In this document: in pieces, positions 2,569 through 63,056 of the stretch | How the letters are laid out: each line of letters begins with the position of its first letter | How positions within the stretch are numbered: position 1 is the first letter of the stretch | IMG/VR virus record: IMGVR_UViG_3300043448_001007 | Location: 10,281 to 74,280 of that record | Strand: one strand, 5' to 3' | DNA length: 64,000 nucleotides | Source of the DNA: a virus | Made by a program: the position numbers and the translations under genes | The notes under the pieces: generated by a model | What the model saw: only the letters and a program-made list of their open reading frames with translations | What the model was told of the DNA's origin: nothing | Database searches by the model: none

Positions 2569-2594
2569 AAAAAACCTCTTTAAAGAGGTTTTTT
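2569..2594. terminator. Bidirectional intrinsic terminator
   Basis: AAAAAACCTCTT-TA-AAGAGGTTTTTT between convergent genes. Confidence 0.8.
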
Positions 2595-2879
2595 CGTTTT
2601 AATAGTAATTATATTGTCTAATGTAAAATCATTAAGTGGTTTTCCACCATTTCGAATGTAGTCATCATATTCAGTGGAATTAATAAAGTCATTTAATAAT
2701 TCTTGATAATCCTCCAACATATATACCTTACCATCATAAGTAATTGTATCTAAGCTTAATCCAGTACTTGGAAATTTTGGTCTTCCATACATAGGACCAA
2801 CATCTCCAAAAAATGGTGCTCCAGAACCTTCTAAAAATTGTTTAAAATTATTTACTTTCGATTTTCTCATAAAATTCAT
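2580..2879 (-). CDS. Hypothetical protein; near-N-terminal 'KVNNFKQFLE' targeting-like peptide
   Basis: ORF track; probable start at Met4 (2870). Confidence 0.6.
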   Translation of the reverse strand: MNFMRKSKVNNFKQFLEGSGAPFFGDVGPMYGRPKFPSTGLSLDTITYDGKVYMLEDYQELLNDFINSTEYDDYIRNGGKPLNDFTLDNIITIKTKKPL

Positions 2880-3297
2880 CCTCAGATTCTAAGGAGTATA
2901 AATCCTTTTTATTATTATATATTAAGTTATAAAGAAAATTATCACCTAATTCATAAACTACATTATTTTTTAAAACTAATTGACAATCACCTTGAAAATT
3001 ATTATTAATTGATATAATTTGGGAATTAATTCTACCATCTTTATCTTCTAAATTACAAATAATTTTCTTTTTGGATATAATGTATTTAACTCTTTCAACT
3101 ATATTCTCTTTTGATAATAGTTTATAATCTTTATACTCTTCTACTAATTCATTTTCATAGTTTTTGAGAAACAATTTCTCTCGTTCTGATAATGATATTT
3201 TTTTGGAAACCTTATCCAAAATTAGATTCAATTTAATTTCCTTGAAAGAATCTCGAATCTGACTAAAGGGTAGTTTAAACTTTACCATATTAGACAC
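2848..3297 (-). CDS. Hypothetical protein with DUF6576-like motif
   Basis: 'LNLILDKVSKKISLSEREKLFL' motif; TAATATATA on the minus strand at 3318-3326. Confidence 0.6.
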   Translation of the reverse strand: MSNMVKFKLPFSQIRDSFKEIKLNLILDKVSKKISLSEREKLFLKNYENELVEEYKDYKLLSKENIVERVKYIISKKKIICNLEDKDGRINSQIISINNNFQGDCQLVLKNNVVYELGDNFLYNLIYNNKKDLYSLESEDEFYEKIESK

Positions 3298-3384
3298 TTA
3301 TTTTTTAAATAATACCATATATATTAAAAATATAACTTAAAGATATGAAATATTTAATATATATGATAATAAATTATTTTATTT

Positions 3385-6048
3385 ATGGATAAACAATTAT
3401 TAGATGCATTAGATAACCTATCATTTGCTTTAGATGAGATTGCAAAAGCACTTAATTCAAAAAATGGTGAATCTCAATCATCGGTTGGGAGTGCTTTACA
3501 AAGTGGTGATTTTTCCAATCAAATGGTGGAGATAGGTAAAGGAATTCAATCTATAAAAGAGGACACAAAGAAGATTTTAGAAAATCAAAATACTATTCTA
3601 AATATGCAAAAAGAAAAAGATTCTAAAAAAACTGATGTTTTTGAAGAGTCGGGTCAAAAAAAGAATAGTATTAAAGATGGTGTTGTATCTGTCTTATTAA
3701 TAGCTGGGGCTGTTTTAGCAATAGGAACTGCATTCAGTCTTTTAGGTGATGTTGATTGGAAAACTGTAATTTCATTATCAATTTCCCTACCCTTATTAGC
3801 TATGGCTTTTGAGAAAATATCAACTATGAAGGATTTATCATATAAAAATATGATTAATCTATTCTTAATAACAACAACTATGTCGATGGCTGTATTAGCA
3901 TCATCTTATATATTATCAGGGGTTAAACCAGTTGGGGCTTCTCAATTATTAACAGTTGTTTTAATAGCGGCTTCATTCTCGTTAATATCTTTTAATGTTG
4001 GTAAATTAGTAACAGCTTTTAGTTCTATCTCAACAACCGATGCTATTAAATCATCTTTCTTAATGCCCTTATTACTTACATCTGTTTCAATGGCTATTGC
4101 GGCTTCTTCATACTTTTTAGATATGGTTAAACCAATTGGATTATCACAGGCCATTACATCAATTCTTATCGCTGGAACATTTACTGTTTTGGGATATGGT
4201 GTTGGTAAGTTATTAGAGTCATTTAAAGGTATATCTGTAAATGATGCTATATCAGCTTCTTTCTTAATACCTATTTTATTAGTTTCAATATCATATGCTA
4301 TATCCCTTTCATCATCATTATTAGCTGGTGTAACACCAATTGGATTATCACAAGCCATTACCTCTATTTTAATTGCTGCTACATTTACTGTAATATCTTA
4401 TGGAGTTGGTCAATTATTAAAAGGATTTAATGGTATATCAGCTTCTGATGCTATGTTAGCTTCCTTAACTTTACCACTTTTATTAGTTGGTATTTCAGCG
4501 GCTATTGTTGGATCATCTTATTTAATAAAAAATATCCAAGATGTTAGTATGTCACAATTAATAACCTTCTTTGGAATAGGATTAACATTATCAGTTGTTG
4601 GTATTATAATGGGAGTTGCATTAAAAGTTATTAGTAAGATCGGAAAGCCAGAAGAATTCTTCGAAGGTGCTATATCTACTGTTTTTATCGCGGGTGCTAT
4701 TGCTATATCTTCACATATTATCGCTATGGGTAATTATACTGGAAACTTCCCCCCATTGGATTGGTCAATTGGGGTTGGATTAAGTTTAATTATTTTTTCA
4801 TTACCAGTTTGGTTTTTGGGTAAAATGGGTGTTAGTGATATTATTAAAGGAACAATTGCCGCTGTTTTGGTATCTGGGTCTATTATGGTATCATCATTAA
4901 TTCTTGAAATGGGATCTTATAAAAAATATCCATCTTTAGATTGGGCATTGGGTGTTGGTCTAAGTTTGGGGGCTTTTGGATTAGCTGCTGTTTTACTTGG
5001 AGCCGTTGCTCTATCTCCTACTTTTTATATGGGATTGGGAGCGGTTCTATTAGTTGCTGGATCAATAGTAGCAACATCTTATATTTTAGAGTCCGGATCT
5101 TATAAAAAATATCCATCATTTGAGTGGGCTAGTAGTGTTGGTTTATTGATGGCTGGATTCAGTGTTGGTATTATCGGATTAGCTTTAGCCTCACCATTCA
5201 TTTTAGTTGGATCAGCTGCTATGTTAATGTTGGGTGGAACAATCTTAGCTATTGACAAAATGTTTGAGAGTGGAAGCTTCACAAAATATCCAAGTGAAGA
5301 ATGGTTTGGTGGTGTTAAGAAAACAATATTGGGTTTTATTGACTTAATGGATGTGGTGTCGATTGGGTCAGCTATTAGTGGTGCTGTATCAGATATGTTT
5401 GGTGGAGGTTTAACTGATATTGCTGAATCTATTTTAGAAATCGATAAAGTATTTGAGGGTGGTAATTTTACAAAATATCCATCAATGGCTTGGGGTAATG
5501 GTGTTTTAAATGCTATCGCTAAGTTTAATCAAATTAAAAATGCTCTTAGTGGTGGTTCTAAATTAGGTGATATTTTTGGTGGAAATGATTTACAAAATAC
5601 TGTTTCTAGTATATCACAATTAGCAGTAGCCTTTGATAGATTAGGAAAGGCTATGTCAACTTTTGCCAACTCTATTTCATCAATTGATGAAGAAAAATTA
5701 ACAGCTATAAAATCTTTATCATCAACAGTTGTCCTAATGTCTTTATTAAATCCAGATCAATTCTCTGAAATGATGGATGCGATGGAAGAAAAATCTGGAA
5801 TATTTGGTGAATTTATTGATGAGTATAATAATAGTAGAAAAGAAGCTGAAACGGGTGGTTTCTTCTCTAGTTTTAAGTCTCCATCTTCGGATAAACCCAA
5901 AAGTGATGCTGATATTTTAGGACCTAAATTAGATAAAATGAATGCCCTATTAGCTGATATATCAACTGTTGTTGGATCAAAAGGATCATTAAAAACTTAT
6001 ATAAATAATAAGGGAAGAGAAGCTAATGTTTCACCAACTAAAAAGTAA
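3385..6048 (+). CDS. Tape-measure-like / multi-helix hydrophobic repeat protein
   Basis: 887 aa; N-terminal coiled coil; three ~69-aa repeats (PIGLSQAITSILIA) and about five ~60-aa repeats (GSYKKYPS.xW); late promoter at 3355-3363. Confidence 0.5.
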   Translation: MDKQLLDALDNLSFALDEIAKALNSKNGESQSSVGSALQSGDFSNQMVEIGKGIQSIKEDTKKILENQNTILNMQKEKDSKKTDVFEESGQKKNSIKDGVVSVLLIAGAVLAIGTAFSLLGDVDWKTVISLSISLPLLAMAFEKISTMKDLSYKNMINLFLITTTMSMAVLASSYILSGVKPVGASQLLTVVLIAASFSLISFNVGKLVTAFSSISTTDAIKSSFLMPLLLTSVSMAIAASSYFLDMVKPIGLSQAITSILIAGTFTVLGYGVGKLLESFKGISVNDAISASFLIPILLVSISYAISLSSSLLAGVTPIGLSQAITSILIAATFTVISYGVGQLLKGFNGISASDAMLASLTLPLLLVGISAAIVGSSYLIKNIQDVSMSQLITFFGIGLTLSVVGIIMGVALKVISKIGKPEEFFEGAISTVFIAGAIAISSHIIAMGNYTGNFPPLDWSIGVGLSLIIFSLPVWFLGKMGVSDIIKGTIAAVLVSGSIMVSSLILEMGSYKKYPSLDWALGVGLSLGAFGLAAVLLGAVALSPTFYMGLGAVLLVAGSIVATSYILESGSYKKYPSFEWASSVGLLMAGFSVGIIGLALASPFILVGSAAMLMLGGTILAIDKMFESGSFTKYPSEEWFGGVKKTILGFIDLMDVVSIGSAISGAVSDMFGGGLTDIAESILEIDKVFEGGNFTKYPSMAWGNGVLNAIAKFNQIKNALSGGSKLGDIFGGNDLQNTVSSISQLAVAFDRLGKAMSTFANSISSIDEEKLTAIKSLSSTVVLMSLLNPDQFSEMMDAMEEKSGIFGEFIDEYNNSRKEAETGGFFSSFKSPSSDKPKSDADILGPKLDKMNALLADISTVVGSKGSLKTYINNKGREANVSPTKK

Positions 6049-7655: not shown

Positions 7656-7658
7656 TTT

Positions 7659-7688
7659 AAAAAGAGGACTAAATTTAGTCCTCTTTTT
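7659..7688. terminator. Bidirectional terminator
   Basis: AAAAAGAGGACTAAATTTAGTCCTCTTTTT. Confidence 0.8.
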
Positions 7689-8973
7689 CTTTTTTATTAT
7701 ATTCTTTAACCTTTGGTATATAACTTGGTGTTAAGAATTTATATAATTTTTTCAAATATTCTTCTCGATCCATCTCCACCTCTGACATACTCCACATTAT
7801 ATAAGCAAAATAATAAATCTTATCAATTAGAACCTCCTCTTCTATTTTATGACCAGTGTATCTAAATTCAATATATTTATACTTTTCTAAAGGAAGTAAA
7901 TTCAATCCAAAGTTTTTATAAGTAAATTTGTAATCCCCATATGGAGTTTGATTGGTTAATATTTTCATGATATGTGAATTTAATAAATTTTCACACTCAT
8001 TAATTTTATTATCTTTTAATAGGTCTAAACTCTTTCCCAATAAATCCACATTATTTAATAAAACCGGCTTTAACGATCCAACATAGTCTGATTTAACCCT
8101 AGATTCCATATTTTTGAATACATATGGTATGTGTTTTTTATCTTTCTGTAAATCATCTAAAAATAAAAGACCTTTAATTAAATTTAAATTTGAATTTTTA
8201 TTAGTAAATCCTAAATTGATATGAATACCAGTTGTTTTTTTGAAACTAAAATGTTTATCTCTCTTCCCCTTAACATTTGGGGATGAATCATAATCAAGAT
8301 AGAAGTCATGAATACAATCAACTAACTCATTAATTGAGTTAAAATAAGTTTTATTTGATAATTCAATTCCATTGTCTAATGTATTATCCAATTCAAATTT
8401 AAATTTAGATCCCCACTTTTCAATAAAAATAGGAAACTTTCTTTTAAACTTCTTTTCCAACTGTTGAAAATTATCTGATAAATAAGATGCACACAATCCA
8501 TCAAAGATATCTAAAATAAATAGTTTATCTTTGATTGATTGAATCTCTTTTTCAATTTCAATACCACCTATTTCATCTGATTCATTTAATTCCTCTTCTA
8601 ATTCACTAAACTGATCATCTAATTCAGATTTAATATCATCTATCCAACTTTCTATCTCTTCATCATCTCCACCAACATCAATAATAGTTGACAAACAATC
8701 TTCTAAAAAATCATTATTCTCTTTTGAGTCTGTATAGATAACAGATCTACTCAATTCTTTTTTAATACTATTTCTGATAATGTTTAGTAAAGTATTCTCT
8801 AAGTATTTTTGAGTATATTCTTTATCACTATGTTTAGATTTTAAATCCGTTAACATCTCTAATTCTATTTCAATAGAAGCTGTAAATAAATCCGAAACCT
8901 CATCATTTTTCATTTGAGATAGTTTCTTAGGATTTAATTCCTCTTTTATAAATTCTATGTATTTCTTAATCAT
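7675..8973 (-). CDS. Putative amidoligase (COOH-NH2 ligase, glutamine synthetase-like fold)
   Basis: Motifs SIEIELE, DNTLDNGIEL, TTGIHINLG, YIEFRY. Confidence 0.65.
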   Translation of the reverse strand: MIKKYIEFIKEELNPKKLSQMKNDEVSDLFTASIEIELEMLTDLKSKHSDKEYTQKYLENTLLNIIRNSIKKELSRSVIYTDSKENNDFLEDCLSTIIDVGGDDEEIESWIDDIKSELDDQFSELEEELNESDEIGGIEIEKEIQSIKDKLFILDIFDGLCASYLSDNFQQLEKKFKRKFPIFIEKWGSKFKFELDNTLDNGIELSNKTYFNSINELVDCIHDFYLDYDSSPNVKGKRDKHFSFKKTTGIHINLGFTNKNSNLNLIKGLLFLDDLQKDKKHIPYVFKNMESRVKSDYVGSLKPVLLNNVDLLGKSLDLLKDNKINECENLLNSHIMKILTNQTPYGDYKFTYKNFGLNLLPLEKYKYIEFRYTGHKIEEEVLIDKIYYFAYIMWSMSEVEMDREEYLKKLYKFLTPSYIPKVKEYNKKEKED

Positions 8974-8997
8974 ATTCTATATATTAACTTTTAAAAA

Positions 8998-9612
8998 CTA
9001 TTTTATTGGACAATGTGACGCACTATAAATAAATTTATAATCCCTTTTTATTTTAACACCTAATGATATTGCTGTTGTTTCTATATCCAAGAAACACTCA
9101 CTATCAGATCCACCAACCATTATAATTTTCCGGCCACTTAATTCAGTTAAAATATTAAATAGCTTTTTAGGACAATGATACCATTTATGATTGTTACCGA
9201 TATAAACAATAATAGTTCCTTCCTTTGTATCAAAATAATCTCCTCTTTTCAACTTCTTATTAATTTCTAAATCTTTAACTTTTTTATATGTTTCATTATC
9301 AAGTACTTTTTTATAAAAATCTATATTAACATTATAGTTATATCTTTTCTCAATTAAATCAACTTGATTTGGAAAATGGTATAAGTCACTATGAACTGGT
9401 ATATCTGGATTTTCATCATATAAATAATCTTTATCAACCGATTTCCCGTCGATATGATTATCCCATATTTGATATACCTTGGAAAATTCTTGACAATATT
9501 TATTCAATTCATATAAATACTTTTCATTAAAGAACTTTCGGAAAGATTTTTGAACATCAACTATAAATAAAATAGATTCATTATTAAAATCTTCAAATAA
9601 TTTAATTTTCAT
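8998..9612 (-). CDS. Isochorismatase/cysteine hydrolase-like protein
   Basis: LFIVDVQ motif at the N-terminus and VGGSDSEC (catalytic Cys position). Confidence 0.6.
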   Translation of the reverse strand: MKIKLFEDFNNESILFIVDVQKSFRKFFNEKYLYELNKYCQEFSKVYQIWDNHIDGKSVDKDYLYDENPDIPVHSDLYHFPNQVDLIEKRYNYNVNIDFYKKVLDNETYKKVKDLEINKKLKRGDYFDTKEGTIIVYIGNNHKWYHCPKKLFNILTELSGRKIIMVGGSDSECFLDIETTAISLGVKIKRDYKFIYSASHCPIK

Positions 9613-9996: not shown

Positions 9997-10022
9997 AAAA
10001 AAGACCTTTCTAGGTCTTTTTT
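9997..10022. terminator. Bidirectional terminator
   Basis: AAAAAAGACCT-TTCT-AGGTCTTTTTT. Confidence 0.75.
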
Positions 10023-10633
10023 ATATATTTTTCTAATCCATAGTTACCAACAATTTCCTCAATATGTGGGATTTTTAAAATATCCTCATAAAATGAATCA
10101 TTACCAACATGAATACCACTTTTAAAATTTATTTTAACCAAATCACCCTCATCAATCACTTCTACCTCACCTAATATATCTTTTAAAAACCTAGTATATA
10201 ATTTAGTTCTTTGAGAATCTTTATTATCTTTGATATGTCTCTCTTGATCACTGGAACTTCTCTTAGGATAAAATGATATTCCCTTAAAAACCTCTTCCTT
10301 TTCCCATATTTTATACTTATTGTTAGTTGATATTAATGATAATACTCCAGCATCATAAGCAGTTGATAATATTTTAGAAATTCTATCCATCATTTCATTT
10401 CTATTAGTTACTGGTAATTCTGAATAATCTTTACTACCATCACTATTTTTTTGATAGAAATCAACTAGAATATAACCACTAGATAATTTAACATTAAAAT
10501 ACATCTTAATATCACCTATCGTAGATGACATTTCACTCGGTATGTTTAACCCATCAATATTCTCAATATTTTTATTAGAAATATATTTTTCTAATAATAA
10601 ACAGAATTCCTCAAATAATTTTAAATAAATCAT
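10010..10633 (-). CDS. Hypothetical protein with 'MIYLKLFEEF' N-terminus
   Basis: ORF track; late promoter at 10638-10646 (minus). Confidence 0.7.
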   Translation of the reverse strand: MIYLKLFEEFCLLLEKYISNKNIENIDGLNIPSEMSSTIGDIKMYFNVKLSSGYILVDFYQKNSDGSKDYSELPVTNRNEMMDRISKILSTAYDAGVLSLISTNNKYKIWEKEEVFKGISFYPKRSSSDQERHIKDNKDSQRTKLYTRFLKDILGEVEVIDEGDLVKINFKSGIHVGNDSFYEDILKIPHIEEIVGNYGLEKYIKKT

Positions 10634-11341: not shown

Positions 11342-11506
11342 ATGGCAAGAAAAAAAGGTAAATTAAAAGAAAAGGTTGGTTTTTCAATCGATAAAGAAAT
11401 CAACGAATTGTTGGAACAATACTGCCAAGATAACATGGTTAATAAGTCTAAACTAATTAATCATTTAATAAAATCTTTCTTAGTTATACAGGAGGAAAAA
11501 GTGTAA
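11342..11506 (+). CDS. Ribbon-helix-helix DNA-binding protein (54 aa; not in ORF track)
   Basis: MARKKGKLKEKVGFSIDKEINELLEQYCQDNMVNKSKLINHLIKSFLVIQEEKV; its stop overlaps the terL start (TAATG). Confidence 0.75.
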   Translation: MARKKGKLKEKVGFSIDKEINELLEQYCQDNMVNKSKLINHLIKSFLVIQEEKV

Positions 11507-12009
11507 TGGCTACTAAACAAATAATATGGACAACTAAAGCAATTGACGAAGTTAATGAGCAAATAAATATGGGGTTTTATCCTAAAGGTGATATGAATCC
11601 ATTTTTTGAAGGAACTCCTGGGTTTAGAAAACCCGGATTGGCTTTTAAAATGACACAGAATGAATTAGAAGAATACATTAAATGTAAAATGGATATTCAC
11701 TACTTTTCTGAAAATTATTGCTATGTTAAAGGTGATCAAGGTGAACCAATTAAATTAAAACTTAGAGACTATCAGAAAGAAGTTCTGGATAACTTTTTTA
11801 ATAACCGTTTTAATATACTAATGGCCAGCAGGCAAGTTGGTAAATGCCTGGGTTTCAATGAGTTAGTAGAAATAGAGGTTGGTGATAATATTGTTTTTAT
11901 TAAAATAGGTAAATTATATTATGATACACTTAAAGAAATAAAGGGACTTACATTATTACAAAGAGTTAAGATATTTTTATACGATTTTCTTTCTAAATTG
12001 GAAAATTAG
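11506..12009 (+). CDS. terL: Terminase large subunit, N-terminal part fused to split-intein N fragment
   Basis: LRDYQ adenine-binding motif; Walker A SRQVGK followed directly by the intein start CLGFNELVEI. Confidence 0.9.
   Translation: MATKQIIWTTKAIDEVNEQINMGFYPKGDMNPFFEGTPGFRKPGLAFKMTQNELEEYIKCKMDIHYFSENYCYVKGDQGEPIKLKLRDYQKEVLDNFFNNRFNILMASRQVGKCLGFNELVEIEVGDNIVFIKIGKLYYDTLKEIKGLTLLQRVKIFLYDFLSKLEN
11845..12009 (+). mobile_element. Split intein N fragment (54 aa)
   Basis: Cys1 after SRQVGK; block A-like CLxxxxxVEI...IKIGKLY. Confidence 0.85.
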
Positions 12010-12091: not shown

Positions 12092-12538
12092 ATGTTTAAA
12101 TTTCTTACAAATATAACAATATATTTAATTCGTAGATTAATTGAGATAGTTGAATACTTTGAGTATTTCAATCGAGATCTTGATGAAGATGATATTCATA
12201 AAAAGGTGATAAATGTTATATCAACTAGAATTAAAGTTAAATCTGATACTGGTTTTGTTAATGCTAGTGAAATAAATCTAACTCAACCATTTACTCATTA
12301 TTTATTGATATTAGATAATGGATATCAATTAAGAGCAGCTGATCATCATTTAGTTTTTGACTCTAATTACTCAACTATCAGAGTTTGTGATTTAAATAAA
12401 GGTGATGAAATATGGACTGATCAAGGTTTAGTTAAAGTGAAAAGTGTTAAGAAATTAAACTTTAAAAGTTCAATGTTTGATTTGTCAATTGATGATTCAA
12501 ATATGAGATACTATACTAATGGTATTTTATCACATAAT
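12092..12538 (+). mobile_element. Split intein C fragment (149 aa)
   Basis: Block B AADHH, block F MFDLSI, block G SHN followed by +1 Thr. Confidence 0.88.
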
Positions 12539-51909: not shown

Positions 51910-53393
51910 AATATTATTTCATATTTTATTTTACCACAATCCCAAATTTTTGGGATTTCTAATTCAGATTCACTTATTCCAGTAATTGACCTTTTAAAAT
52001 TTGATTTATGGATTCTTTCACCATCAAAAACATATTTATAGTCTGGATTACTTTCATTTACCTTTTCAAATTTTAATTTAGTATATAGATCACCACGGCT
52101 CCAATCTCGATCAGCATAACTTATTATTCTGATTGGTTTATAATTTTTAATAAAATAATTAAGTAATTTTGAAGCACCACCTATAACATTAAATCCAATC
52201 TTATTACAAAATCTATTTAAATTCCATTCTCCATAATTCATTTTCTTACGACCTTCAAATTGATCAAATGTCATTAAACAAACCAACTCTTCATTGTGAA
52301 ATAAACCTATTTTAATTTTTGAATTTGACCAACCTTGGATATGATTATTGTTTAAAAATTTTTTAACTAATTCTATATCATCAATTTCCTTAATAATACA
52401 ATTTCTAGATCCAATTTTTGAACTTAATTTTAAAAGATTTCCTATTTGACTTTCAATTATACTTTTTCTATGATTCCAATCATCTTCCCAAAAATGGATT
52501 AATCTAATTCCCTGTGATTCGAAAAATTTTGTCTTTTCTAAATGGAAATTTTTATCCTTATATATCTCAGAATGCCAATATATACCATTGAACTCAAATC
52601 CTATTTTCTCGGATGGTAGAAATATATCAATTTCTTTATTACCAATTTTATAATTTTGTATTATTTCCCCATTATATATTGATTTTATAAAGTTAAATAG
52701 GTTTATCTCACCACCAGATTGATGACCATTTATTTTATTACAAATTGTGCATAATATTGTTTTATATTTAATCCTTTTATGGAATAAATCAATATCTATT
52801 TCAAAATCATGTTCTTTATTGTTATCACATCTAAATAAAGATATTCCATTTTCCTTATAAGATAAATAATTTTTATGATTAGCAATTTTAAAATTGTTTT
52901 TTCTAAAAATTTCACTTTTTTTGTTATTTGATGCCCCCCAATTTTCTAAATATTTTTTAGCTTTGAGATCTTTTACTTCTCTGGATTGTGAAACATTTTC
53001 AACTCCCCATCTATCTAAATTTGTTGATTTTTGTTTATTTAAAACTTCTTTATTTTTTAAATGATGTTCAACACCAAACTTTTTAATATTATTCTCTTTT
53101 ATTTTTATTTGAATATCTTTTGATTGTGATACAAACTCAACACCTCTTTTCTCTAAGTTGGTCTTTTTTGACTTTTCTTTGATATTATCTAATTGGAATA
53201 CGTTTTCAACTCCCCATTTTTCTAAATTATTCTTCTTTAATTTACATTTTTTACACAAATACTCACCATTACAATATCCATATGATGTATATAATTTGAA
53301 TTTTATCTTTTTATCAATACCACATGAATCACAGACTACCTCTATTTCAGTATTACTCCATTTTCCAATACTATCTATATTAGTTTTAATCAT
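51906..53393 (-). CDS. Hef-like homing endonuclease
   Basis: EKWGVEN repeats; EIDIFLP..GFEFNGIYWHS; FWEDDW; RFC..GGASKL; SYAD; IWDCG. Confidence 0.75.
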   Translation of the reverse strand: MIKTNIDSIGKWSNTEIEVVCDSCGIDKKIKFKLYTSYGYCNGEYLCKKCKLKKNNLEKWGVENVFQLDNIKEKSKKTNLEKRGVEFVSQSKDIQIKIKENNIKKFGVEHHLKNKEVLNKQKSTNLDRWGVENVSQSREVKDLKAKKYLENWGASNNKKSEIFRKNNFKIANHKNYLSYKENGISLFRCDNNKEHDFEIDIDLFHKRIKYKTILCTICNKINGHQSGGEINLFNFIKSIYNGEIIQNYKIGNKEIDIFLPSEKIGFEFNGIYWHSEIYKDKNFHLEKTKFFESQGIRLIHFWEDDWNHRKSIIESQIGNLLKLSSKIGSRNCIIKEIDDIELVKKFLNNNHIQGWSNSKIKIGLFHNEELVCLMTFDQFEGRKKMNYGEWNLNRFCNKIGFNVIGGASKLLNYFIKNYKPIRIISYADRDWSRGDLYTKLKFEKVNESNPDYKYVFDGERIHKSNFKRSITGISESELEIPKIWDCGKIKYEIIL

Positions 53394-53532: not shown

Positions 53533-55635
53533 ATGAAACCTATATTAATCGTAGAGAACAACACAAATCCTCTTTCGTTAAATGAAAATTTAAGTGGAAA
53601 GGATAAGTATGTTCTTTCAGGACCATTCACTGAATTTGATATCGTGAATAGAAATGAAAGAGTTTATACTGCTAATAAGTTCTTACCAGCTCTTCAAGAG
53701 TTGAATGAAAGAATTAAACAATTGGGTGTTGTGTATGGTGAGTTCGATCATCCCGACGTCTTTGACACATCATTACAAAGAGCATCTCACATTATCACTA
53801 AAGCTTCTTTTATGAAAGAAAGTAATAGAGTTGATGGTGAGATTCGTTTACTAACTACCTATTGGGGTAAAGAAGCAAGAGCTTTAGTTGATGATGGATG
53901 TCCTATTTTTGTTTCCTCAAGAGCTGCTGGTATTACTGAGTCTGATGGAAGTGTATCATTAAAGAAATTATTTACTTATGATATTGTTGCAGATCCTGGA
54001 TTTGCATCAGCTAAAATGTCTGTAAAGCCATTGAATGAATCATTAGGGTATAATTTAAATAAATCTAACTTTAGGATATATGAAATGTCCGACGAGTCAA
54101 AAATCAATCAATTATTTATGAATAACAATAATGATTTTGTTACAAAGAAACAATTGACCGATTACTCTAAGTATCTAATCAATGAGATAGCATCAACTAA
54201 AAAAGAAGTTAAGTCTGCTGTATCTGAAGGTAAAATGGATCCTAAGCAATTGGAAAAATTGTTAGAGTACTATGAAGAGTTGAATAAAACTAATACTGAC
54301 ATTGTTAAGTATTTGGATTATTTGGCTAATAAAGTACAAGTGGTAGTTAATGAGAATAAGTCATTAAAATCTACTACAGATCGTTTGATCAAACATAACG
54401 ATTATATCGTTGAAAATCTTGAAAAAACAATTAACTATTCTGAGTATGTAGCTGAGAAAGTTGATAAAAACATCTCCTATTCTGAGTATGTAGCTGAGCA
54501 ATTGGATAAAAATATTGCATATTCTGAATATGTAGCAGAACAAGTTGATAAAAACATTGCTTATTCTGAATATGTAGCAGAACAATTAGATAAAAACATC
54601 GCTTATGCTGAATATATCGCTGAGAATGTTGATAAAAACATTGCTTATTCTGAATATGTAGCAGAACAAGTTGATAGTTCTATCGCTTATTCTGAATATT
54701 TAGCTGAACATGTTGAAGGAAATATTGCTTATGCTGAATATATCGCTGAGAATTTAGATGATAATATCGCTTATTCTGAGTATATCGCAGAAAGTTTAGA
54801 TAAATCAGTTTCTTACCAAGCTCTTATTGTTGAGAAATTGAATAACAAGAAAAATAAATTAAATGAAAATGCTGAATATGATCCATTACCAACTCCAGAA
54901 GAAGTAGGTTTTGAAGATGAATCAGAAGAAGAAAATGAATTTGGTGATGAAAACGAATTCCCTTCTGAAGATGAAACTCCAGCATTGGTTGAATTCGATG
55001 AAGAAGAACATTCTTTAGTTGATTCTGATGATGAGTGTGAACCTTGTGGTGATGACTATTCAGAAGAAGAAGAAGTTTTAGGTGAAGAAGAAGTTACTAC
55101 ATTCGAAGGAAACTCTGATACAGAATTATCAAAATCTATTGATAAATTAATCGAAGAAGCTAAAAAACGAAAAGCTGCTGAATCTTCAGACGTTCATTTT
55201 TTAAAATTCTTAAATAAATCTCAGGTTGATAGTTTCTATGGCTTAACAAACGAAGAGCAAGAATCTGTTAAACTTTACATAAGCGAAAAAAGTTTCTTTA
55301 CACAAAAAGATGTGTTGAGATTAATATCTGAGGCTTTATCTACTAAGAATGAATCGTTAGAGGAACGAATTATCCGAATGATGCCTGATTCTATCAAGCC
55401 AATTTGGAACCAATTAAATGAGAGTAATAGAAAATCAATTTTATCTCAGTCTAGATTATTCCCTGCGGAAGTTCTACAAACTGAATCACAAATTGAGCAC
55501 TTCTGGAATACTCGTAATTTAAAGAAAAATGAATCTGTAACTAAGAAGTTAGTTTCTCACGAAGCTTTGATCCAAGAAGATAAAGTTTCTAATGATGAAA
55601 TGAAAGCTATTATGGAAAGATTCAAAAATATTTAA
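53533..55635 (+). CDS. gp21: Prohead protease (gp21-like) fused to scaffold with 14-aa repeats
   Basis: NRNERVY, GEFDHP, SSRAAG, TYDIVADPGF; coiled-coil and acidic C-terminal part. Confidence 0.9.
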   Translation: MKPILIVENNTNPLSLNENLSGKDKYVLSGPFTEFDIVNRNERVYTANKFLPALQELNERIKQLGVVYGEFDHPDVFDTSLQRASHIITKASFMKESNRVDGEIRLLTTYWGKEARALVDDGCPIFVSSRAAGITESDGSVSLKKLFTYDIVADPGFASAKMSVKPLNESLGYNLNKSNFRIYEMSDESKINQLFMNNNNDFVTKKQLTDYSKYLINEIASTKKEVKSAVSEGKMDPKQLEKLLEYYEELNKTNTDIVKYLDYLANKVQVVVNENKSLKSTTDRLIKHNDYIVENLEKTINYSEYVAEKVDKNISYSEYVAEQLDKNIAYSEYVAEQVDKNIAYSEYVAEQLDKNIAYAEYIAENVDKNIAYSEYVAEQVDSSIAYSEYLAEHVEGNIAYAEYIAENLDDNIAYSEYIAESLDKSVSYQALIVEKLNNKKNKLNENAEYDPLPTPEEVGFEDESEEENEFGDENEFPSEDETPALVEFDEEEHSLVDSDDECEPCGDDYSEEEEVLGEEEVTTFEGNSDTELSKSIDKLIEEAKKRKAAESSDVHFLKFLNKSQVDSFYGLTNEEQESVKLYISEKSFFTQKDVLRLISEALSTKNESLEERIIRMMPDSIKPIWNQLNESNRKSILSQSRLFPAEVLQTESQIEHFWNTRNLKKNESVTKKLVSHEALIQEDKVSNDEMKAIMERFKNI
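54436..54813 (+). repeat. Nine 42-bp tandem coding repeats (Y[SA]EY[VIL]AE...NIA)
   Basis: Visible in both DNA and protein. Confidence 0.9.
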
Positions 55636-55676: not shown

Positions 55677-57353
55677 ATGTCACACATTAGAATAGACAAA
55701 TCAAAAGCAACAAAAAAATGGGGTCCTGTATTGGAAAATATGGGTATCTCTGGCGAAAGAGTTGAATGGATGTCAGAATTAGCTGAATATCACCAAATCA
55801 ATGAAAACGCTTATGCTAACGCTACTACAGCTGGTATGGGTGCAGTAGTAAATCCAAATATGGCTGGTATCTTCCCTGGTAATGCTGGTGGATACTCTAA
55901 CTCAGCATTAGGTTCAGGAGACGTTGGTCAGAACTTATTACCTGTAGCTATGAAAATCGCTGGTCAAACTATCGGTTTAGACTTAGTAGCAGTAAAACCT
56001 TCTCCAGGTCCAAAAATTGACTTGATTTATATCGATTTCCAATATGATGATTTATCTGATGTTGGTGGTATGTCAAGACCTCAAGTATTCAAAATCACTA
56101 ATGCATCTGCTAATGTTAAAGCATCAATCGGTGCAGCTTTAACAGCTAATCCAGCTATTAAATTAACACAAGGTGGTTTACAAGGTGGTAGATTATTCGT
56201 TAATACTATTAAAGTTAGTGCTGCTCTTGTAAATGCTGAACCAACTGGTTCTAAAGAAGGTGTTTTAGAATTCTTAGGATTCTCTCGTATTGATGGTCAT
56301 CCAATGTTCAAAGCTTATCGTCAAGCTAACTCTACTCCAGTAGGTGCTGGTGTATATCCTTACACTTTTGATCAAAAATTAAACACATTCAATCCAACTC
56401 AATCAATGGTTGATCAAATTTTATTCATTGGTACTGCTTCAGCAACTGCTTCAGCAATTGAATTAGTATCTGCTCTTGAAGATCACTTACCTGGTTTCTC
56501 TGCAAACTGGTCATCTAAAGTATCTTCTGGTGATTATCCAATGGATAGAGCAACTGATGATAATACATACTCTGGTATCATCGGACCTAAAGTATCTTCT
56601 AAATCAATCGCTGTTGGTACTGTTGAAGTATCTACTGCATTAAGAAGAACTGAAATTGAAGATATCAAAGCTAATACTGGTATGGATATCGTTCAAAAAA
56701 TGGAATCTATCTTAGTTAATGAGTTGTCTCAAACAATCTCTAAACAAATTGTAGCTAAAATATTTGAATTGGGTGATTTGAATAGACAATCAGCTCCTTT
56801 AGCTGGTTCTGCTACTTCAGTTACAGCAACTGCTTCAACTATTTTTGACTTAAACACTACTTATGCAAATGTAATTGGTGGTGAAACTACACACGCTGTA
56901 CAAAGAAAGTTAATCACTAAAATGGTTCACGCTTCTAACTACATCGCTACTGAAGGTCGTGTAGGTCCTGCACAATTTGCAATCACTAATGGTGGTTTAG
57001 CTGCATCTTTAATGGATATCGCAGGATATACTATTAACCCAGTTAAATCTAAATTAAATGGTTCTGGTCAATTGTATCCAGTAGGTACTATCGGTGATAT
57101 TCAAATCTATGTAGATCCATATCAAAGATATAATGATAACAGAATTGTTATCGGTAGAAAAAACAACCCTGATCAACCAGGTTTAATTTTCGTACCTTAC
57201 TTGATGGCTCAGTCAATCAGTGTAATCTCTGAAGCAACTTTCGCACCTCGTATGTTGTTGAGATCTAGATACGCTATCGCAGACGTTGGATTCTTCCCAC
57301 AAAAACAATATATGACTATCGTAGTTGAAGATGCCGCTGGTTACTTAAACTAA
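55677..57353 (+). CDS. gp23: Major capsid protein (gp23-like)
   Basis: KW.PVLE, IG.DLV.V.P, LVNELSQ.I.K.I, YVDPY, PGLIFVPY, FAPRMLLRSRYA. Confidence 0.93.
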   Translation: MSHIRIDKSKATKKWGPVLENMGISGERVEWMSELAEYHQINENAYANATTAGMGAVVNPNMAGIFPGNAGGYSNSALGSGDVGQNLLPVAMKIAGQTIGLDLVAVKPSPGPKIDLIYIDFQYDDLSDVGGMSRPQVFKITNASANVKASIGAALTANPAIKLTQGGLQGGRLFVNTIKVSAALVNAEPTGSKEGVLEFLGFSRIDGHPMFKAYRQANSTPVGAGVYPYTFDQKLNTFNPTQSMVDQILFIGTASATASAIELVSALEDHLPGFSANWSSKVSSGDYPMDRATDDNTYSGIIGPKVSSKSIAVGTVEVSTALRRTEIEDIKANTGMDIVQKMESILVNELSQTISKQIVAKIFELGDLNRQSAPLAGSATSVTATASTIFDLNTTYANVIGGETTHAVQRKLITKMVHASNYIATEGRVGPAQFAITNGGLAASLMDIAGYTINPVKSKLNGSGQLYPVGTIGDIQIYVDPYQRYNDNRIVIGRKNNPDQPGLIFVPYLMAQSISVISEATFAPRMLLRSRYAIADVGFFPQKQYMTIVVEDAAGYLN

Positions 57354-57469: not shown

Positions 57470-59512
57470 ATGAATTCAGAAAAAATTAAAAAGATAGAAT
57501 CGATTGTTGAAGACAAAACAGTTAGGTTAAGAGAATCCTATTGGATTAATAATTATAGTGAATTTCATAAAGAAGTATCAGATTATATTAATTTAGATAT
57601 ACCATTTATTCAAAAATTATGGCATTGGGTTAATGATTATCCAAATGAGTTTAAATGTTTATGTGGTAATAAAACATCATTTAATAGAAATTGGAAAGAT
57701 GGTTATAAGAAATTTTGTTCAACAAAATGTTCATATAAGGATTCAAATACTTTAGAAAAGAGAAAAAAAACAACTTTGGATAAATGGGGGGTTGAGAATG
57801 TTGCTCAATCTAAAAAAATTAAAGAAAAAACAGAAAAAACAAATTTAAAAAGATATGGAACTAAATCATCATTCCAAAATAAAGATGTTAGAGAAAAATT
57901 TAAAAGAAATTATCAAGAAAAACACGGAGTTGATCACCCATTTAAGAATGACGAAGTAAAAGATAAGATTAAACATTCCAATAATATAAAGTTTGGTAAA
58001 GACTATTATACACAAACAGATGAATTTATTTTAAAGTCAAAAATAACAAATAATTTGAAGTTTGGAAAGGATTACTATACACAAACAAATGAATTCAAAG
58101 AAAGATTAATTAAAATATCAAATGAAAAATGGGGTGTTGATAGTTATTTACAAACAGATGAATTAAGAAATATATTAAAAGACAATAAAGATTTAATTAT
58201 TGAAAAGTCAAAAAAGACTAGCTTAGATAATTGGGGAGTTGAATTCTATACACAATCTGAAGATTATAAAAATAAATCAATTAACTTTAATAGAGCTGAC
58301 CAACAAAAGATTAGAAAAACAAATTTAGAGAAATGGGGTAAAGAATATTACACTCAAACAGATGAGTGGAAGGAAAATATGATTAAACACAATCAAGAAA
58401 AATATGGTAAGGATTGGTATTCACAAACAGATGGATTTAAAGATGTTATTAAACTACAAATAGATAAGTTTAAAGAACTTAAATGGATAAAATCAAAGGA
58501 GTATTATAAAAATTGTGGATTTGAATTATTATCGAAAAAAGGAGAGTTTGTTGAATTGGTAAGTGATTCTTGTGGTCATACTTTTAGTATTTATCGAGAC
58601 ACTTTTTATAAAAGATATGGTGAATATAATATTAATCCTTGTATTATATGTAATCCATTAAATTCTGGAGTGTCTGGCTTAGAATTGGAAGTCGTAGATT
58701 GGTTAAAATCATTAAATATTAATATTGAGACTAATAATAGATCATTGATTGATGGATTTGAATTAGATATAGTAATACCAGATCAAAAAATTGCTATTGA
58801 ATTTAATGGATTATATTGGCATTCAGAGTTCTATAAAGAAAAGAACTACCATTCATTAAAAACAGATTTATGTAAAAATATTGGATTTAGATTGATTCAT
58901 ATTTGGGAAGATGATTGGAAAAATAAGAATGAAATAGTTAAATCAATAATTTTAAACTCGATCAATAAAATAGATAAAAAAGTTTGGGCTAGAAAATGTA
59001 ATATTAAAGAAGTTGATAGTAAGTCAGTTAGAATTTTTTTAGATAGTAATCATATTCAAGGTAATTGTCAATCTAGTTTAAGATATGGGTTATATCTTGG
59101 AGATGAATTGATATCATTAATGACATTTGGTTCTAGATATATTAATGGTAAATCATCTTATGAATTATTAAGGTTTTGTAATAAGATAGGATATTCCATT
59201 GTTGGGGGTGCTTCTAAATTATTTAGTCATTTTTTAAAAAATTGTGAGGAAAGTGAAATTGTGTCATATGCTGACCTTTCTATATTTGATGGTTATTTAT
59301 ATAAAACATTGGGATTTAAATTCATACATAGAAGTAATATAAATTATTGGTGGGTTGTTAATGGAAAAAGACATCATAGATTTAATTTCTCTAAGAAAAG
59401 ATTAGTTAAGTTAGGATATGATAAAAGTTTAACAGCTGATTCTATTCTACATTCAATAGGGGCTTATAAAATATTCGGTTGTGGTCAAGATCGATATGTT
59501 TATAAAAGATAA
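57470..59512 (+). CDS. Hef-like homing endonuclease with expanded K(W/Y/F)G..YYTQT repeats
   Basis: About nine 'EKWGV/KFGKDYYTQT' repeats; ELDIVIP..AIEFNGLYWHS; WEDDW; RFC..GGAS; SYAD. Confidence 0.75.
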   Translation: MNSEKIKKIESIVEDKTVRLRESYWINNYSEFHKEVSDYINLDIPFIQKLWHWVNDYPNEFKCLCGNKTSFNRNWKDGYKKFCSTKCSYKDSNTLEKRKKTTLDKWGVENVAQSKKIKEKTEKTNLKRYGTKSSFQNKDVREKFKRNYQEKHGVDHPFKNDEVKDKIKHSNNIKFGKDYYTQTDEFILKSKITNNLKFGKDYYTQTNEFKERLIKISNEKWGVDSYLQTDELRNILKDNKDLIIEKSKKTSLDNWGVEFYTQSEDYKNKSINFNRADQQKIRKTNLEKWGKEYYTQTDEWKENMIKHNQEKYGKDWYSQTDGFKDVIKLQIDKFKELKWIKSKEYYKNCGFELLSKKGEFVELVSDSCGHTFSIYRDTFYKRYGEYNINPCIICNPLNSGVSGLELEVVDWLKSLNINIETNNRSLIDGFELDIVIPDQKIAIEFNGLYWHSEFYKEKNYHSLKTDLCKNIGFRLIHIWEDDWKNKNEIVKSIILNSINKIDKKVWARKCNIKEVDSKSVRIFLDSNHIQGNCQSSLRYGLYLGDELISLMTFGSRYINGKSSYELLRFCNKIGYSIVGGASKLFSHFLKNCEESEIVSYADLSIFDGYLYKTLGFKFIHRSNINYWWVVNGKRHHRFNFSKKRLVKLGYDKSLTADSILHSIGAYKIFGCGQDRYVYKR

Positions 59513-59536
59513 TTTTTCAAATTAATATATACTGAT

Positions 59537-60814
59537 ATGAAATATTTAAAATCTTATAAAAAATACAATGAGGATGTTGCATTTGCTTCAACAGCTGGTA
59601 TGGGATCCGTTTCAAATTCACAACCAGGTGGATTTGCTGGTGATGTTTCAGGATCAACTCCCGGATCCGGTGATATACCCTTCTATTTAAAAAGAAATAA
59701 AGGGAAAAAAGGAAGTCCAAGCGAGGTTAGTGATTTAAGAGATTTGGAAGAAGTTGATGTTGAAGAAATTGATGACTTAAAAGAAGGATTTATTTTTGAA
59801 AATAAATCTGACATAAGATATAATTGGGTAGTTTTATATTTTGATAATATTAAAAAATTTAGTAATGGTGAAACAGGTCAATTATTAGATATTTTTTGGG
59901 CTGAGGATATGAATGAATTATATCATATTTTAAAAGATAATATATTTGATAATGAGGATGAAGAATTAACATATACAAATATTCCATATGATGAATGGTG
60001 TGGTTGGGCTAATGAATATAAAATTATTAGAGCTGGAGAAAAAGAACCAAGATTTCAAATTTGTTTAGATTCTGATAATTGTTGGAATGATTTCCTAGAC
60101 TTCTATAATAATGCTCCATTAAATGAAAATAAAGTAGTTAATTTTAAAGTATTTGAAAGTTCAAATAAATATAATTGGTTAATAACCTATCAGGATTATG
60201 ATAGTGATGAGGAAAATATCATTTGGTGTGAAGATATGAATGATGTTTATAAATCTATTAAAGGAAACCTATTTATCGATGAGGAAAATGAAATTGATGA
60301 AACTAATATTCCATATAGTGAGTGGCATGGTGGTAATGTCTATATAAAAATCTATAAATATGGTCAAAATCACGAATCCTTTCAAATCCATTTACAATCA
60401 GATGATACTTGGAACGATTTCTTAATTTTTTATAATGAAGTTCCATTAAATGAGAGTAAAAAGAAGTTTCCAAATATTAAAAAGATGGAAATTGATGGAT
60501 TTGAGGTTCTGATGGGTAAAGATGCTGATTCAAACGATTATTTAACTATTCAAATGAGAAAAGATGGGGATTTGTGGTTCCATGCACATGGATTTCCAGG
60601 ATCTCATATAATTTTAAGATGTGGTGATAGAATTCCGGATCAAAATACTAAAAAGAAAGTGGCGGAATTGGCCGCTAAGAATTCAAAGGCATCTGGATTG
60701 GCTACTGTAATATGTTGTCCAATTAATTTAGTTAAAAAGGAGTCTGGTTCAAATCCAGGGAAAGTTAAGATAGAAGATAGTCTTAATATTGAGAAAATAG
60801 ATATTAATCTATAA
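59537..60814 (+). CDS. Multidomain protein: targeting-like N-terminus, two ~100-aa duplicated acidic domains, C-terminal NFACT-R (DUF814) RNA-binding domain
   Basis: DGFEVLMGKDADSNDYLT...DLWFHAHGFPGSHIILR...AELAA.NSK is the NFACT-R signature of RqcH/FbpA. Confidence 0.8.
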   Translation: MKYLKSYKKYNEDVAFASTAGMGSVSNSQPGGFAGDVSGSTPGSGDIPFYLKRNKGKKGSPSEVSDLRDLEEVDVEEIDDLKEGFIFENKSDIRYNWVVLYFDNIKKFSNGETGQLLDIFWAEDMNELYHILKDNIFDNEDEELTYTNIPYDEWCGWANEYKIIRAGEKEPRFQICLDSDNCWNDFLDFYNNAPLNENKVVNFKVFESSNKYNWLITYQDYDSDEENIIWCEDMNDVYKSIKGNLFIDEENEIDETNIPYSEWHGGNVYIKIYKYGQNHESFQIHLQSDDTWNDFLIFYNEVPLNESKKKFPNIKKMEIDGFEVLMGKDADSNDYLTIQMRKDGDLWFHAHGFPGSHIILRCGDRIPDQNTKKKVAELAAKNSKASGLATVICCPINLVKKESGSNPGKVKIEDSLNIEKIDINL

Positions 60815-60821
60815 TTAAATT

Positions 60822-60830: not shown

Positions 60831-60834
60831 CTAA

Positions 60835-62208: not shown

Positions 62209-62218
62209 TTTATAATAT

Positions 62219-62641
62219 ATGATTAAGAACTGGAAACTATTTAAAGAGAAGTATGATGAGGTAGATGACTCTGATTGGGATATTGAAGATGATGATTATG
62301 AACCATCTGAAGAAGATTTAGAAGATATCTTGGATGATAATGATATTGATTTAGAGATTGAAAATCTATGTTCGTTAATTCGTAAATATTTGAAAAATTC
62401 AGATCTATCATCATTAGTAGAATATAAAGATGGTGATTTAACTATTTATATATTTTTGGAAAAAAAGGAGAAGATCGGGTTATTAACTTCAATCCTGGAA
62501 GTTTTAAAAAATCTTCATAATGATATACTACCGGAATATGAAAGTAGTGTTGAACTATATCAAAATAAAACCAAAGAACCACTTTTGATTATTTCTTTAT
62601 ATAGAGATGATGAGGGTGATGGGGATAAAAATAAAAAATAA
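62219..62641 (+). CDS. Acidic protein with 'MIKNWKLFKE' N-terminus
   Basis: D/E-rich N-terminal half. Confidence 0.7.
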   Translation: MIKNWKLFKEKYDEVDDSDWDIEDDDYEPSEEDLEDILDDNDIDLEIENLCSLIRKYLKNSDLSSLVEYKDGDLTIYIFLEKKEKIGLLTSILEVLKNLHNDILPEYESSVELYQNKTKEPLLIISLYRDDEGDGDKNKK

Positions 62642-62642
62642 T

Positions 62643-63056
62643 ATGAGATATTTAAAAAAATTCGATTTTTATATTATTGAAAATGTAGAACAACTATCAT
62701 TAAAATACATCAGACCTGATGTAACTGATGATATGGGTTGGAGGAAACCAGGAATGGCAGATTGGGGTGTATTTAAAAATGATGAGTTAGTTGCTGTTTT
62801 TTATTTAGATGATGAAAAACCTGATCTTTATATAAGAGGATTTGAAATAAAAGAAGATTTTAGAGGTAAGGGTTATGGAAAAAAAGTTTTGGACTTGATA
62901 AAGTCATATGCTAAATCGAAAAAGTTTAAATTCTTAACTCTGAATTTTTATAAATCAAATAAAGTAGCTGAACATCTTTATAGGAGTTACGGTTTCTTTG
63001 ATGATACTAAGCAATTTCCAGAATCACCTGTTATTAATCTAAGAATGAAAATTTAA
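62643..63056 (+). CDS. GNAT acetyltransferase
   Basis: FRGKGYGKKVL acetyl-CoA motif and N..A..LY.SYGF; start moved to ATG 62643 (MRYLKKFD). Confidence 0.85.
   Translation: MRYLKKFDFYIIENVEQLSLKYIRPDVTDDMGWRKPGMADWGVFKNDELVAVFYLDDEKPDLYIRGFEIKEDFRGKGYGKKVLDLIKSYAKSKKFKFLTLNFYKSNKVAEHLYRSYGFFDDTKQFPESPVINLRMKI

Follow-up and report, generated by a model that had tools for sequence, protein, structure and literature searches.

The window analysed here is a stretch of 64,000 nucleotides, bases 10281–74280 of the 74,280-bp contig IMGVR_UViG_3300043448_001007, from an uncultured freshwater giant phage with a contig G+C content of 26–29%. A short, shared N-terminal peptide, referred to below as the tag, begins 10–13 of the 71 open reading frames (ORFs) of the contig, approximately one gene in six, and is likely to be a capsid-targeting propeptide of the type used by bacteriophage T4, in which the capsid-targeting sequence (CTS) MKTYQEFIAE is carried by IPII and IPIII (and also IPI and Alt) and is removed by the prohead protease gp21. 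Near-identical N-termini on unrelated ORFs had been pointed out in a sequence-only reading of the window; all of those quoted were read back, and eleven of the twelve lie exactly where they had been placed, the remaining one, at approximately 2860, being weak. The tagged genes, named below by the position at which they start, are as follows.

7675–8973, minus strand: 432 residues, MIKKYIEFIKEE, with the second (type-2) form of the tag, nearest to T4 MKTYQEFIAE; TAATATATA lies 4 nt 5′ of the ATG.
8998–9612, minus strand: 204 residues, MKIKLFEDFNNE and then strand β1 ILFIVDVQ; predicted isochorismatase-like fold.
10010–10633, minus strand: 207 residues, MIYLKLFEEF; no known domain; P1 promoter-like motif 4 nt 5′.
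15888–16463, plus strand: 191 residues, MKHIKTFEKY; the orthologue in the relative LR745206 starts MKHIRTYENY.
20297–20893, plus strand: 198 residues, MKYIKGFKLFKE; directly 5′ of the tail sheath gene.
31036–31677, plus strand: HD-domain phosphohydrolase (Pfam), MKIKKFKEY; host-like P2 motif TATATTTGTA upstream.
38373–38627, plus strand: 84 residues, MKHIRKFSTFNE.
46532–47068, plus strand: 178 residues, MKYLKKFNE.
59537–60814, plus strand: multi-module protein of 425 residues, MKYLKSYKKYNE, with an NFACT-R domain (Pfam).
62219–62641, plus strand: acidic protein of 140 residues, MIKNWKLFKE; the LR745206 orthologue starts MKINKYKKFLE.
62643–63056, plus strand: GNAT acetyltransferase (Pfam) of 137 residues, MRYLKKFDFYIIE.
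2580–2879, minus strand: weak or variant member of 99 residues, MNFMRKSKVNNFKQFLEG; the LR745206 orthologue starts MIKKFYQFINE.

The main tag consensus is M-K-[YH]-[IL]-K-x-[FY]-[EK]-x-F, in most cases with a Glu next, and the second form reads M-[IL]-(I)-K-K-Y-[IL]-x-F-I-K-E. The tag is a short amphipathic, Lys-rich helix, the most informative positions of which are 4, 5, 7 and 10. The start of the HD gene is ambiguous, as an in-frame ATG at 31027 would add MEF before the 31036 start, and the GNAT gene has an alternative in-frame ATG at 62607, overlapping the preceding gene. In the weakest member, the tag-like peptide KVNNFKQFLE lies nine residues into an ORF beginning at 2879. A thirteenth member is located just upstream of the window (L001:1872, MKNLKSFEKFNE). 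An ORF at contig position 729, also outside the window, starts MNIKDYKRFYN and matches the search pattern described below, and was set aside as probably untagged because its N-terminus falls within a region 70% identical to an orthologue starting MNLRQVRNFYN.

The nearest public relatives of this phage are the ‘uncultured phage’ records LR745206 (635 kb) and LR756500–504, the protease and capsid genes of LR745206 being 71% identical in DNA to those of the window. Farther relatives, by capsid protein, are the Lak megaphages, Tenacibaculum phages PTm1, PTm5 and pT24, Chryseobacterium phage MA9V, Flavobacterium phage MaF61 and Sphingomonas phage PAU, the host of which is really a Sphingobacterium (PMC3738902). 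The regular expression [ILVMW][KR].[FY]..[FY], built post hoc from the contig’s own data, matched within the first nine residues of 10 of the 71 contig ORFs, compared with 8 matches in 22,503 internal positions (41-fold). Owing to this derivation, it was tested on the complete genome of LR745206 (907 greedily called ORFs), in which it matched 58 of the 907 N-termini (6.4%), compared with 6 of 3,062 internal Met residues (0.2%) and 36 of 24,088 other ATGs (0.15%), several of the latter being evidently real tagged starts missed by the ORF rule. The sequence-only reading had named, as grounds for abandoning it, a motif no commoner than in shuffled N-termini; shuffling residues 2–15 of the LR745206 N-termini gave a mean of 2.7 matches and a maximum of 7, against the 58 observed. 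A strict DNA pattern for the tag was found 26 times in LR745206, once each in PAU and LR756501, and in neither PTm1 nor Lak-B5, with no occurrence in reversed controls.

At a G+C content of 26–29%, and with starts in MK being common, chance resemblance among N-termini rich in Lys, Ile, Asn, Phe and Tyr through AT-rich codon bias might have accounted for such a pattern. These controls refute that explanation and leave it practically no probability, with shuffled N-termini, internal Met residues and wrong-frame ATGs all falling far below the observed frequency, and the equally AT-rich genomes of Lak-B5 (544 kb) and PTm1 (225 kb) lacking any strict match. The tag is thus specific to this sub-lineage and is not a product of AT-richness.

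Beyond the tag, its carriers are unrelated. The 58 tagged proteins of LR745206 fall into 55 BLAST components, and the window carriers are unrelated past residue ~18–20, with only one marginal pair. The tag remains N-terminal even where the domain architecture has changed, as in NFACT-R proteins of 425 and 129 residues. Carriers range from 84 to 466 residues and are more acidic than other proteins, and no membrane-like stretch was found in any tagged protein. Synonymous codon use within the tag equals that of the genome (AAA 0.71 versus 0.74, TTT 0.76 versus 0.71, and Leu encoded by TTA and CTA), which shows that selection acts on the tag peptide and not on an RNA or DNA motif.

The promoter-like motif TAATATATA occurs in 30 copies in the window, where 7.9 would be expected and shuffled sequences gave 15 at most, and 9 of the 12 listed genes have it upstream, much as the sequence-only reading had described. 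Two examples are located as follows.

59523–59531, plus strand: P1 motif TAATATATA, 5 nt 5′ of the 59537 start codon.
8978–8986, minus strand: P1 motif.

The P1 class, defined as AATATATA, is found upstream of 171 genes in LR745206 and, in the window, upstream of the portal gene, the protease/capsid operon and large structural genes. A second class, P2, defined as TATATTTG(TA), is found upstream of 63 genes in LR745206, almost never of tagged ones, and its window copies lie upstream of 9649 and of 31027. The −7 box of Bacteroidota sigma-A promoters is TAnnTTTG, which we take the P2 motif TATATTTG to resemble, and P2 is probably the class read early by the host polymerase. Among LR745206 genes with a called promoter, the P1:P2 ratio is 27:1 for tagged and 144:62 for untagged genes (P = 0.0014); judged by these motifs, the tag is co-regulated with the head genes, and the expectation that tagged genes would share the promoter class of the head genes was borne out.

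The distance from the end of P1 to the ATG is bimodal in LR745206 (loci L003–L034), at 0–9 nt or 15–29 nt, with approximately half at 0–9 nt; if P1 is a −10-type element, those transcripts would be leaderless or nearly so. The conserved start might then be a signal in RNA or DNA, either the translation-initiation region of nearly leaderless mRNAs or a promoter-plus-start cassette spread by recombination, and the A/T-richness of the region would suit such a signal. This explanation is very improbable, as the codon use of the tag follows the genome and its third positions vary, tags are equally frequent at near and far P1 spacing (14 versus 13), 30 of the 58 tagged LR745206 genes have neither promoter motif within 60 nt, 144 of the 171 genes with P1 alone are untagged, and orthologues retain the residue pattern through nucleotide change.

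Among the window carriers, Pfam confirms only the HD, NFACT-R and GNAT domains, and searches of Pfam and PHROGs with 12 tagged window proteins returned nothing for 8 of them. Two labels of the sequence-only reading, HD and GNAT, were accordingly upheld by Pfam, whereas its ‘amidoligase’ and ‘cysteine hydrolase’ were detected by neither Pfam nor PHROGs. The 8973 protein has Amidoligase_2 neighbours in the ESM Atlas and is a probable Amidoligase_2-like product, as an Atlas lead only. With the isochorismatase-like 9612 product assigned by fold, only approximately 5 of the 12 carriers are recognisable enzymes, and the others have no known domain. In LR745206, only ~8 of the 58 tagged proteins have Pfam matches.

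The predicted fold of 9612 resembles isochorismatase-like hydrolases, with Z scores of 7.4–9.2 over 118–140 aligned residues, and the top 43 VIA rows all belong to this superfamily. Pfam and Foldseek alone gave no significant assignment, Foldseek finding no match to the model with E <0.001, and the consistent family emerged only from the VIA re-alignment, in which Z scores of 8–9 are only moderately above background. An Asp-Lys-Cys triad (D19, K89 and C173) is invariant in 38 homologues. The AlphaFold (AF2) model has a mean predicted local distance difference test (pLDDT) score of 85.8, with residues 1–10 forming a low-confidence helix (pLDDT 43), and solved nicotinamidases start at the equivalent of model residue 10–12; in the model, the tag is therefore a detached helix added ahead of the enzyme fold. 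A comparable arrangement appears in the GNAT protein, whose best Pfam match is Acetyltransf_1 at residues 33–118 (Acetyltransf_10 matches at 14–136) and whose β1 strand appears to be KYIRP, residues 21–25, which would place the tag before the fold.

More than 1,100 homologues of 9612 were found on megaphage-like contigs of up to 623 kb. In the 120 best of these, the tag pattern is kept, and a linker that varies in length separates it from the conserved strand LIIVDVQK; the pattern is retained in over 100 orthologues while the sequence drifts. The family, which is divergent and isochorismatase/nicotinamidase-like, is not detected by any Pfam family; it may belong to the core enzymes of megaphages, perhaps with a role in nicotinamide or NAD metabolism.

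The window also encodes a T4-type morphogenesis module, with the following members.

12092–14293: large terminase.
20970–25130: tail sheath.
49459–51135, plus strand: gp20-type portal (Portal_T4, 8.6e-57).
53533–55635, plus strand: protease-scaffold protein of 700 residues (phrog_207, 9e-29; Peptidase_S77, 26 bits).
55677–57353, plus strand: gp23-type major capsid protein (Gp23, 3e-26).

Searches of the capsid protein and protease sequences against PDB chains gave no matches, and they were instead compared directly with T4. The protease domain is 26% identical to T4 gp21 over 191 columns (E = 2e-7), with the His motif GEFDHP aligned to GELNHP and the Ser motif VSSRAAG to VSSRGLG. Together with the matches to Portal_T4, Gp23 and phrog_207, this alignment indicates that the head module is T4-type, with a gp21-like protease, a gp20 portal and a gp23 capsid protein, in agreement with the sequence-only reading. 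The gp21/S77-like domain occupies approximately residues 1–170 of the 700-residue protein, and is followed by repeats, an acidic stretch and a C-terminal region; in PTm1, the orthologous protein bears the annotation of a fused ‘prohead core scaffolding protein and protease’. The domain ends at hydrophobic-x-Glu sites equivalent to those of gp21 (a slash marks the putative cut), PILIVE/N corresponding to PQLLIE/T and KPLNE/S to KEITE/S, and the candidate sites in the protease-scaffold protein are LIVE/N, SLNE/N, PLNE/S, KLNE/N and QLNE/S. The scaffold-like region contains 8.5 tandem 14-residue repeats (54436–54792, unit YSEYVAEQVDKNIA), each with two hydrophobic-x-Glu motifs, and may thus be diced by its own protease.

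In the capsid protein, the propeptide motif KKWGPVLEN is the counterpart of T4 gp23 NKWKPLLEG, and the predicted maturation cut, after I-N-E (residues 41–43, nt 55797–55805), falls in the same alignment column as LTE/A of gp23, a column that also holds INE/N in LR745206, INE/S in PTm1 and LME/N in PAU. The Glu sites to which the sequence-only reading had drawn attention are present, QINE in the capsid protein (residues 40–43) and SLNE, PLNE and KLNE in the protease.

The tag resembles the T4 CTS in its location at the extreme N-terminus of unrelated proteins, its length of ~10 residues, its Met-Lys start, the hydrophobic or aromatic character of its positions 4 and 7, and its usual hydrophobic-x-Glu end, in a phage that, like T4, has gp20, gp21 and gp23 homologues. 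The likeness is closest in 8973, where KKYIEFIKE has Y, E, F, I and E in the same spacing as T4 KTYQEFIAE. According to a review of mutational studies in T4, residues 4 and 7 of the CTS, as mapped for IPIII, govern targeting and residues 8 and 10 processing, Asp at position 10 blocks cleavage while targeting is kept, and CTS fusions are retained and injected (PMC9026906). Among the 68 tagged proteins, position 4 is Ile or Leu in 67 and position 7 is Tyr or Phe in all 68, partly by construction of the regular expression. An a-priori pattern derived from T4, [YF]..F[IL].E, was found at 17 of 978 N-termini, including that of 8973, compared with 0.48 expected. A hydrophobic-x-Glu motif with Glu at residues 9–14 is present in 71% of tagged and 23% of untagged N-termini and in 16% of internal windows (P = 3e-15); by residue 20 it is present in 84% of tagged N-termini and in 23–36% of untagged ones (residues 14–20).

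The tag departs from the T4 CTS in several respects. Its main form has an invariant Lys5 and a third aromatic residue at position 10, its Glu position floats, and 16% of its carriers have no site. In T4 the carriers are a handful, whereas this lineage has ~12 of them in 74 kb and at least 58 in 635 kb, so that the sequence-only reading was right to expect a much larger set (~60–70 in the 635-kb relative). Unlike in T4, recognisable enzymes are found among the carriers, protease and scaffold are fused, and packaging is a prediction.

The multi-module protein 59537 brings tag, capsid propeptide and candidate cleavage sites together in one chain. Its residues 1–12 form the tag (MKYLKSYKKYNE/D), which is directly followed by a copy of the capsid N-arm (residues 13–50, A.A.TAGMG..V...GSGD[IV]), by FIFE/N and by a repeat module, A1, ending APLNE/N; the remainder comprises a tag-like KVVNFKVFE/S, a second repeat, A2, ending VPLNE/S, and the NFACT-R domain (residues 307–425). 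The modules A1 and A2 are 45% identical and both end PLNE, a motif that occurs 3 times in the contig proteome compared with 0.29 expected, always in 59537 or in the protease (at the end of the protease domain). The N-arm is shared by a family of at least 47 megaphage proteins with differing C-terminal parts, and columns 1–50 of the family profile align with capsid residues 32–87 (hhalign 96.6%, E = 5.7e-10), with the invariant tag Glu12 aligned to capsid Glu43. The NFACT-R domain, which follows VPLNE/S in 59537, is a separate 129-residue protein in LR745206, where it follows a tag ending KE/G, and the two are collinear directly past the Glu. The 59537 protein looks like a polyprotein, and cleavage by the head protease would yield four or five products. 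As a general rule, the idea that the tag is a copy of the capsid propeptide helix was rejected, as position-specific scoring matrices (PSSMs) of the window-clade and PAU tags scored no capsid propeptide above the proteome background.

A separate tag is found in PAU (219 kb), in which 19 ORFs start MKTLTQLYE(A/S)KLNE-like; its carriers are gp131–133, gp142–146, gp149, gp150, gp152, gp153, gp154, gp164, gp166 and five others. PAU belongs to the same clade as the window phage, with a capsid protein 26% identical to that of the window, and its tag likewise has M-K-x-[LI] at positions 1–4, hydrophobic residues at 7 and 8, a Glu site and a similar density. The residue pattern differs, with one cross-match to the strict window-type pattern, and 14 of the 19 PAU tags lie around the head genes at 100–121 kb (gp131–133 at 100–101 kb, gp142–166 at 106–121 kb), whereas tags of the window lineage are dispersed. 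The tagged set includes the annotated scaffold protein gp152, as well as gp142 and gp154, labelled ‘internal capsid protein’ by the depositors, and the PAU capsid protein carries ...AKLNE/S. We found no published description of the PAU tag, the GenBank notes giving ‘internal capsid protein’ only, and no description in the literature of the present tag in megaphages. Further N-terminal variants were seen by eye in PTm1, LR756501 and Lak-B5. In the Lak-B5 region examined (L038, MK250024 28483–70390), reading TAG as a sense codon raises coding density from 0.62 to 0.91, and several ORFs share the start MNKLIKKL[VM]E[SG]LFDD, which may represent the tag in Lak phages.

The shared N-terminus is, on these comparisons and with reasonable confidence, a T4-like capsid-targeting propeptide, and by analogy with T4 the phage probably packs a large and varied set of proteins into its head. 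In the mechanism we propose, the amphipathic helix is appended ahead of otherwise unrelated proteins and would bind the scaffolding core of the assembling prohead, so that the carrier is enclosed within the shell. The scaffold-fused gp21-family protease would then trim most tags after hydrophobic-x-Glu, as at I-N-E43 of the capsid protein, which is consistent with the site enrichment and the shared register. The freed proteins would remain in the head and would probably be delivered with the DNA, as are IPI–III and Alt of T4.

The same helix could instead mark another intracellular fate, as a degron or adaptor-binding element (such as the ClpXP-type ‘Met-basic-hydrophobic’ N-motifs) or as an address for a membrane, a replication compartment or another assembly, with Glu serving in helix capping or solubility. 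The amphipathic, Lys-rich character of the tag would suit such a role, many carriers resemble cytoplasmic counter-defence or RNA-metabolism enzymes, and cleavage sites are not universal. In addition, the tagged NFACT-R protein, a peptidase and the tagged GNAT are encoded next to a transfer-messenger RNA (tmRNA), suggesting that proteostasis is a theme here. We consider this alternative unlikely. It offers no account of why the tag matches the CTS determinants mapped in T4, why tagged genes rely almost exclusively on the promoter class of the head genes, why tag Glu12 is in register with the site of capsid maturation, or why the PAU tag is present on the scaffold and on small genes around the head genes, and the absence of membrane-like stretches speaks against a membrane address.

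A further alternative accepts the prohead protease and dispenses with delivered cargo, the carriers being core or scaffold parts that are degraded and expelled, like T4 gp22, or zymogens that are activated late without being packaged. The cleavage evidence (site enrichment, the Glu12 register and NFACT-R collinearity) fits this equally well, the PAU scaffold is tagged, and the acidic linkers that follow the tag are reminiscent of T4 gp67 and gp68. We judge it slightly less probable still, given that folded isochorismatase-like, GNAT and HD enzymes are unlikely scaffolds and that the T4 protease is active only inside the prohead, so that a substrate must first be inside. The retention and injection of T4 CTS fusions also argue against it (PMC9026906).

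Several observations weigh against capsid targeting itself. The hydrophobic-x-Glu motif is lacking by residue 20 in 11 of the 68 tagged proteins (16%), and some 9612 orthologues have no Glu at all after the tag (for example, MRHLKIYDNFQNKQT), so that cleavage is not universal; where present, the Glu lies at +1 to +3 after the last aromatic residue, and this variation indicates that there is no cut in a fixed register. As T4 Asp10 mutants still target, a missing Glu site is no bar to CTS membership. The protease match to PF03420 (Peptidase_S77; residues 20–139, E = 7.6e-6) scores 26.0 bits, just under the curated cut-off of 27. The failure of capsid propeptides to score with the tag PSSMs leaves the 59537 family as the sole link between tag and propeptide. 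Carriers of the NUDIX, 2H/Acb1-like, PolyA_pol-like, RNase T-like and NFACT-R types could equally work in the cytoplasm, and the HD gene is the only tagged gene of the window with a host-like P2 motif. The ‘internal capsid protein’ labels in PAU are the depositors’ own annotations, and a literature search found no virion proteome for PAU, PTm1, pT24 or MA9V. A cargo of 60–70 different proteins would, to our knowledge, be without precedent among CTS systems.

Other phages process many head proteins in a related way, and the principle of a removable targeting peptide is already known from T4. We know of no short common address tag, or T4-like CTS form, in the long propeptides of phiKZ and SPN3US, whereas in the window phage a consensus of ~10 residues is common to the carriers. 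These two phages are alike in having a gp21-related protease (gp175 in phiKZ, gp245 in SPN3US) that cuts after Glu and dozens of head-internal proteins, many of them ejected into the host (PMC5694885, PMC7411985, PMC10052503). What is new here is the scale, with one short consensus common to dozens of carriers, the occurrence of lineage-specific variants in a clade of Bacteroidota phages, and the tie to the capsid propeptide in one family. In encapsulins, the shells of which have the HK97 fold, as do phage capsids, and in bacterial microcompartments, short amphipathic helices (cargo-loading and encapsulation peptides) direct unrelated enzymes into a shell. These are an analogy only, with no claim of homology; there is no removal by a maturation protease and no packaging or delivery of DNA, and encapsulin tags are mostly C-terminal.

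Several neighbouring features of the window were also noted. The large terminase gene is split into ORFs 11506–12009 and 12092–14293, 82 nt apart, with ~680 nt inserted near residue 118–120 relative to the single 710-residue gene of LR745206, and an Rfam search found no intron in it. Three paralogous HNH-type homing endonuclease genes, at 25231–26910 (plus strand), 51906–53393 (minus strand) and 57470–59512 (plus strand), match phrog_3339 with E values of 1e-102 to 1e-124 and interrupt the structural module, one lying between portal and protease and one directly 3′ of the capsid gene. The phage-encoded tmRNA occupies 63102–63471 on the plus strand, directly 3′ of the tagged GNAT gene (Rfam RF00023, 50.4 bits compared with a gathering score of 47). 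Near-identical DNA is present in freshwater and freshwater-sediment metagenomes from at least 2 studies. In three freshwater or estuary metatranscriptomes, the RNA-library contigs extend over no genes other than scaffold and capsid (54.6–57.3 kb), and are thus uninformative on the tagged genes and unable to rank expression.

A more far-reaching version, which we put forward only tentatively, is that the ~10-residue tag of this clade, akin to the last helix of the capsid propeptide or descended from it, might load at least 60 different ready-made proteins into each head, to enter the host with the DNA and serve as an immediate counter-defence kit, and that the packaged proteome might be read directly from sequence. 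Such a kit would include enzymes acting on NAD or nucleotide signals and in RNA repair, among them the isochorismatase-like, NUDIX, 2H/Acb1-like, HD, GNAT and NFACT-R proteins. As PAU has been cultured, the packaging prediction is testable there. Should the tag function as it does in T4, sequence alone would suffice to predict which proteins lie inside the virions of uncultured 0.5–0.7-Mb phages, and their diversity would exceed that of any known CTS cargo by an order of magnitude. A short, portable packaging tag for Bacteroidota phages would then also be available, for which PAU would provide a test system. Enzymes made beforehand would act before phage gene expression begins, which could plausibly explain the survival of very large genomes that are injected slowly in the face of host defences.

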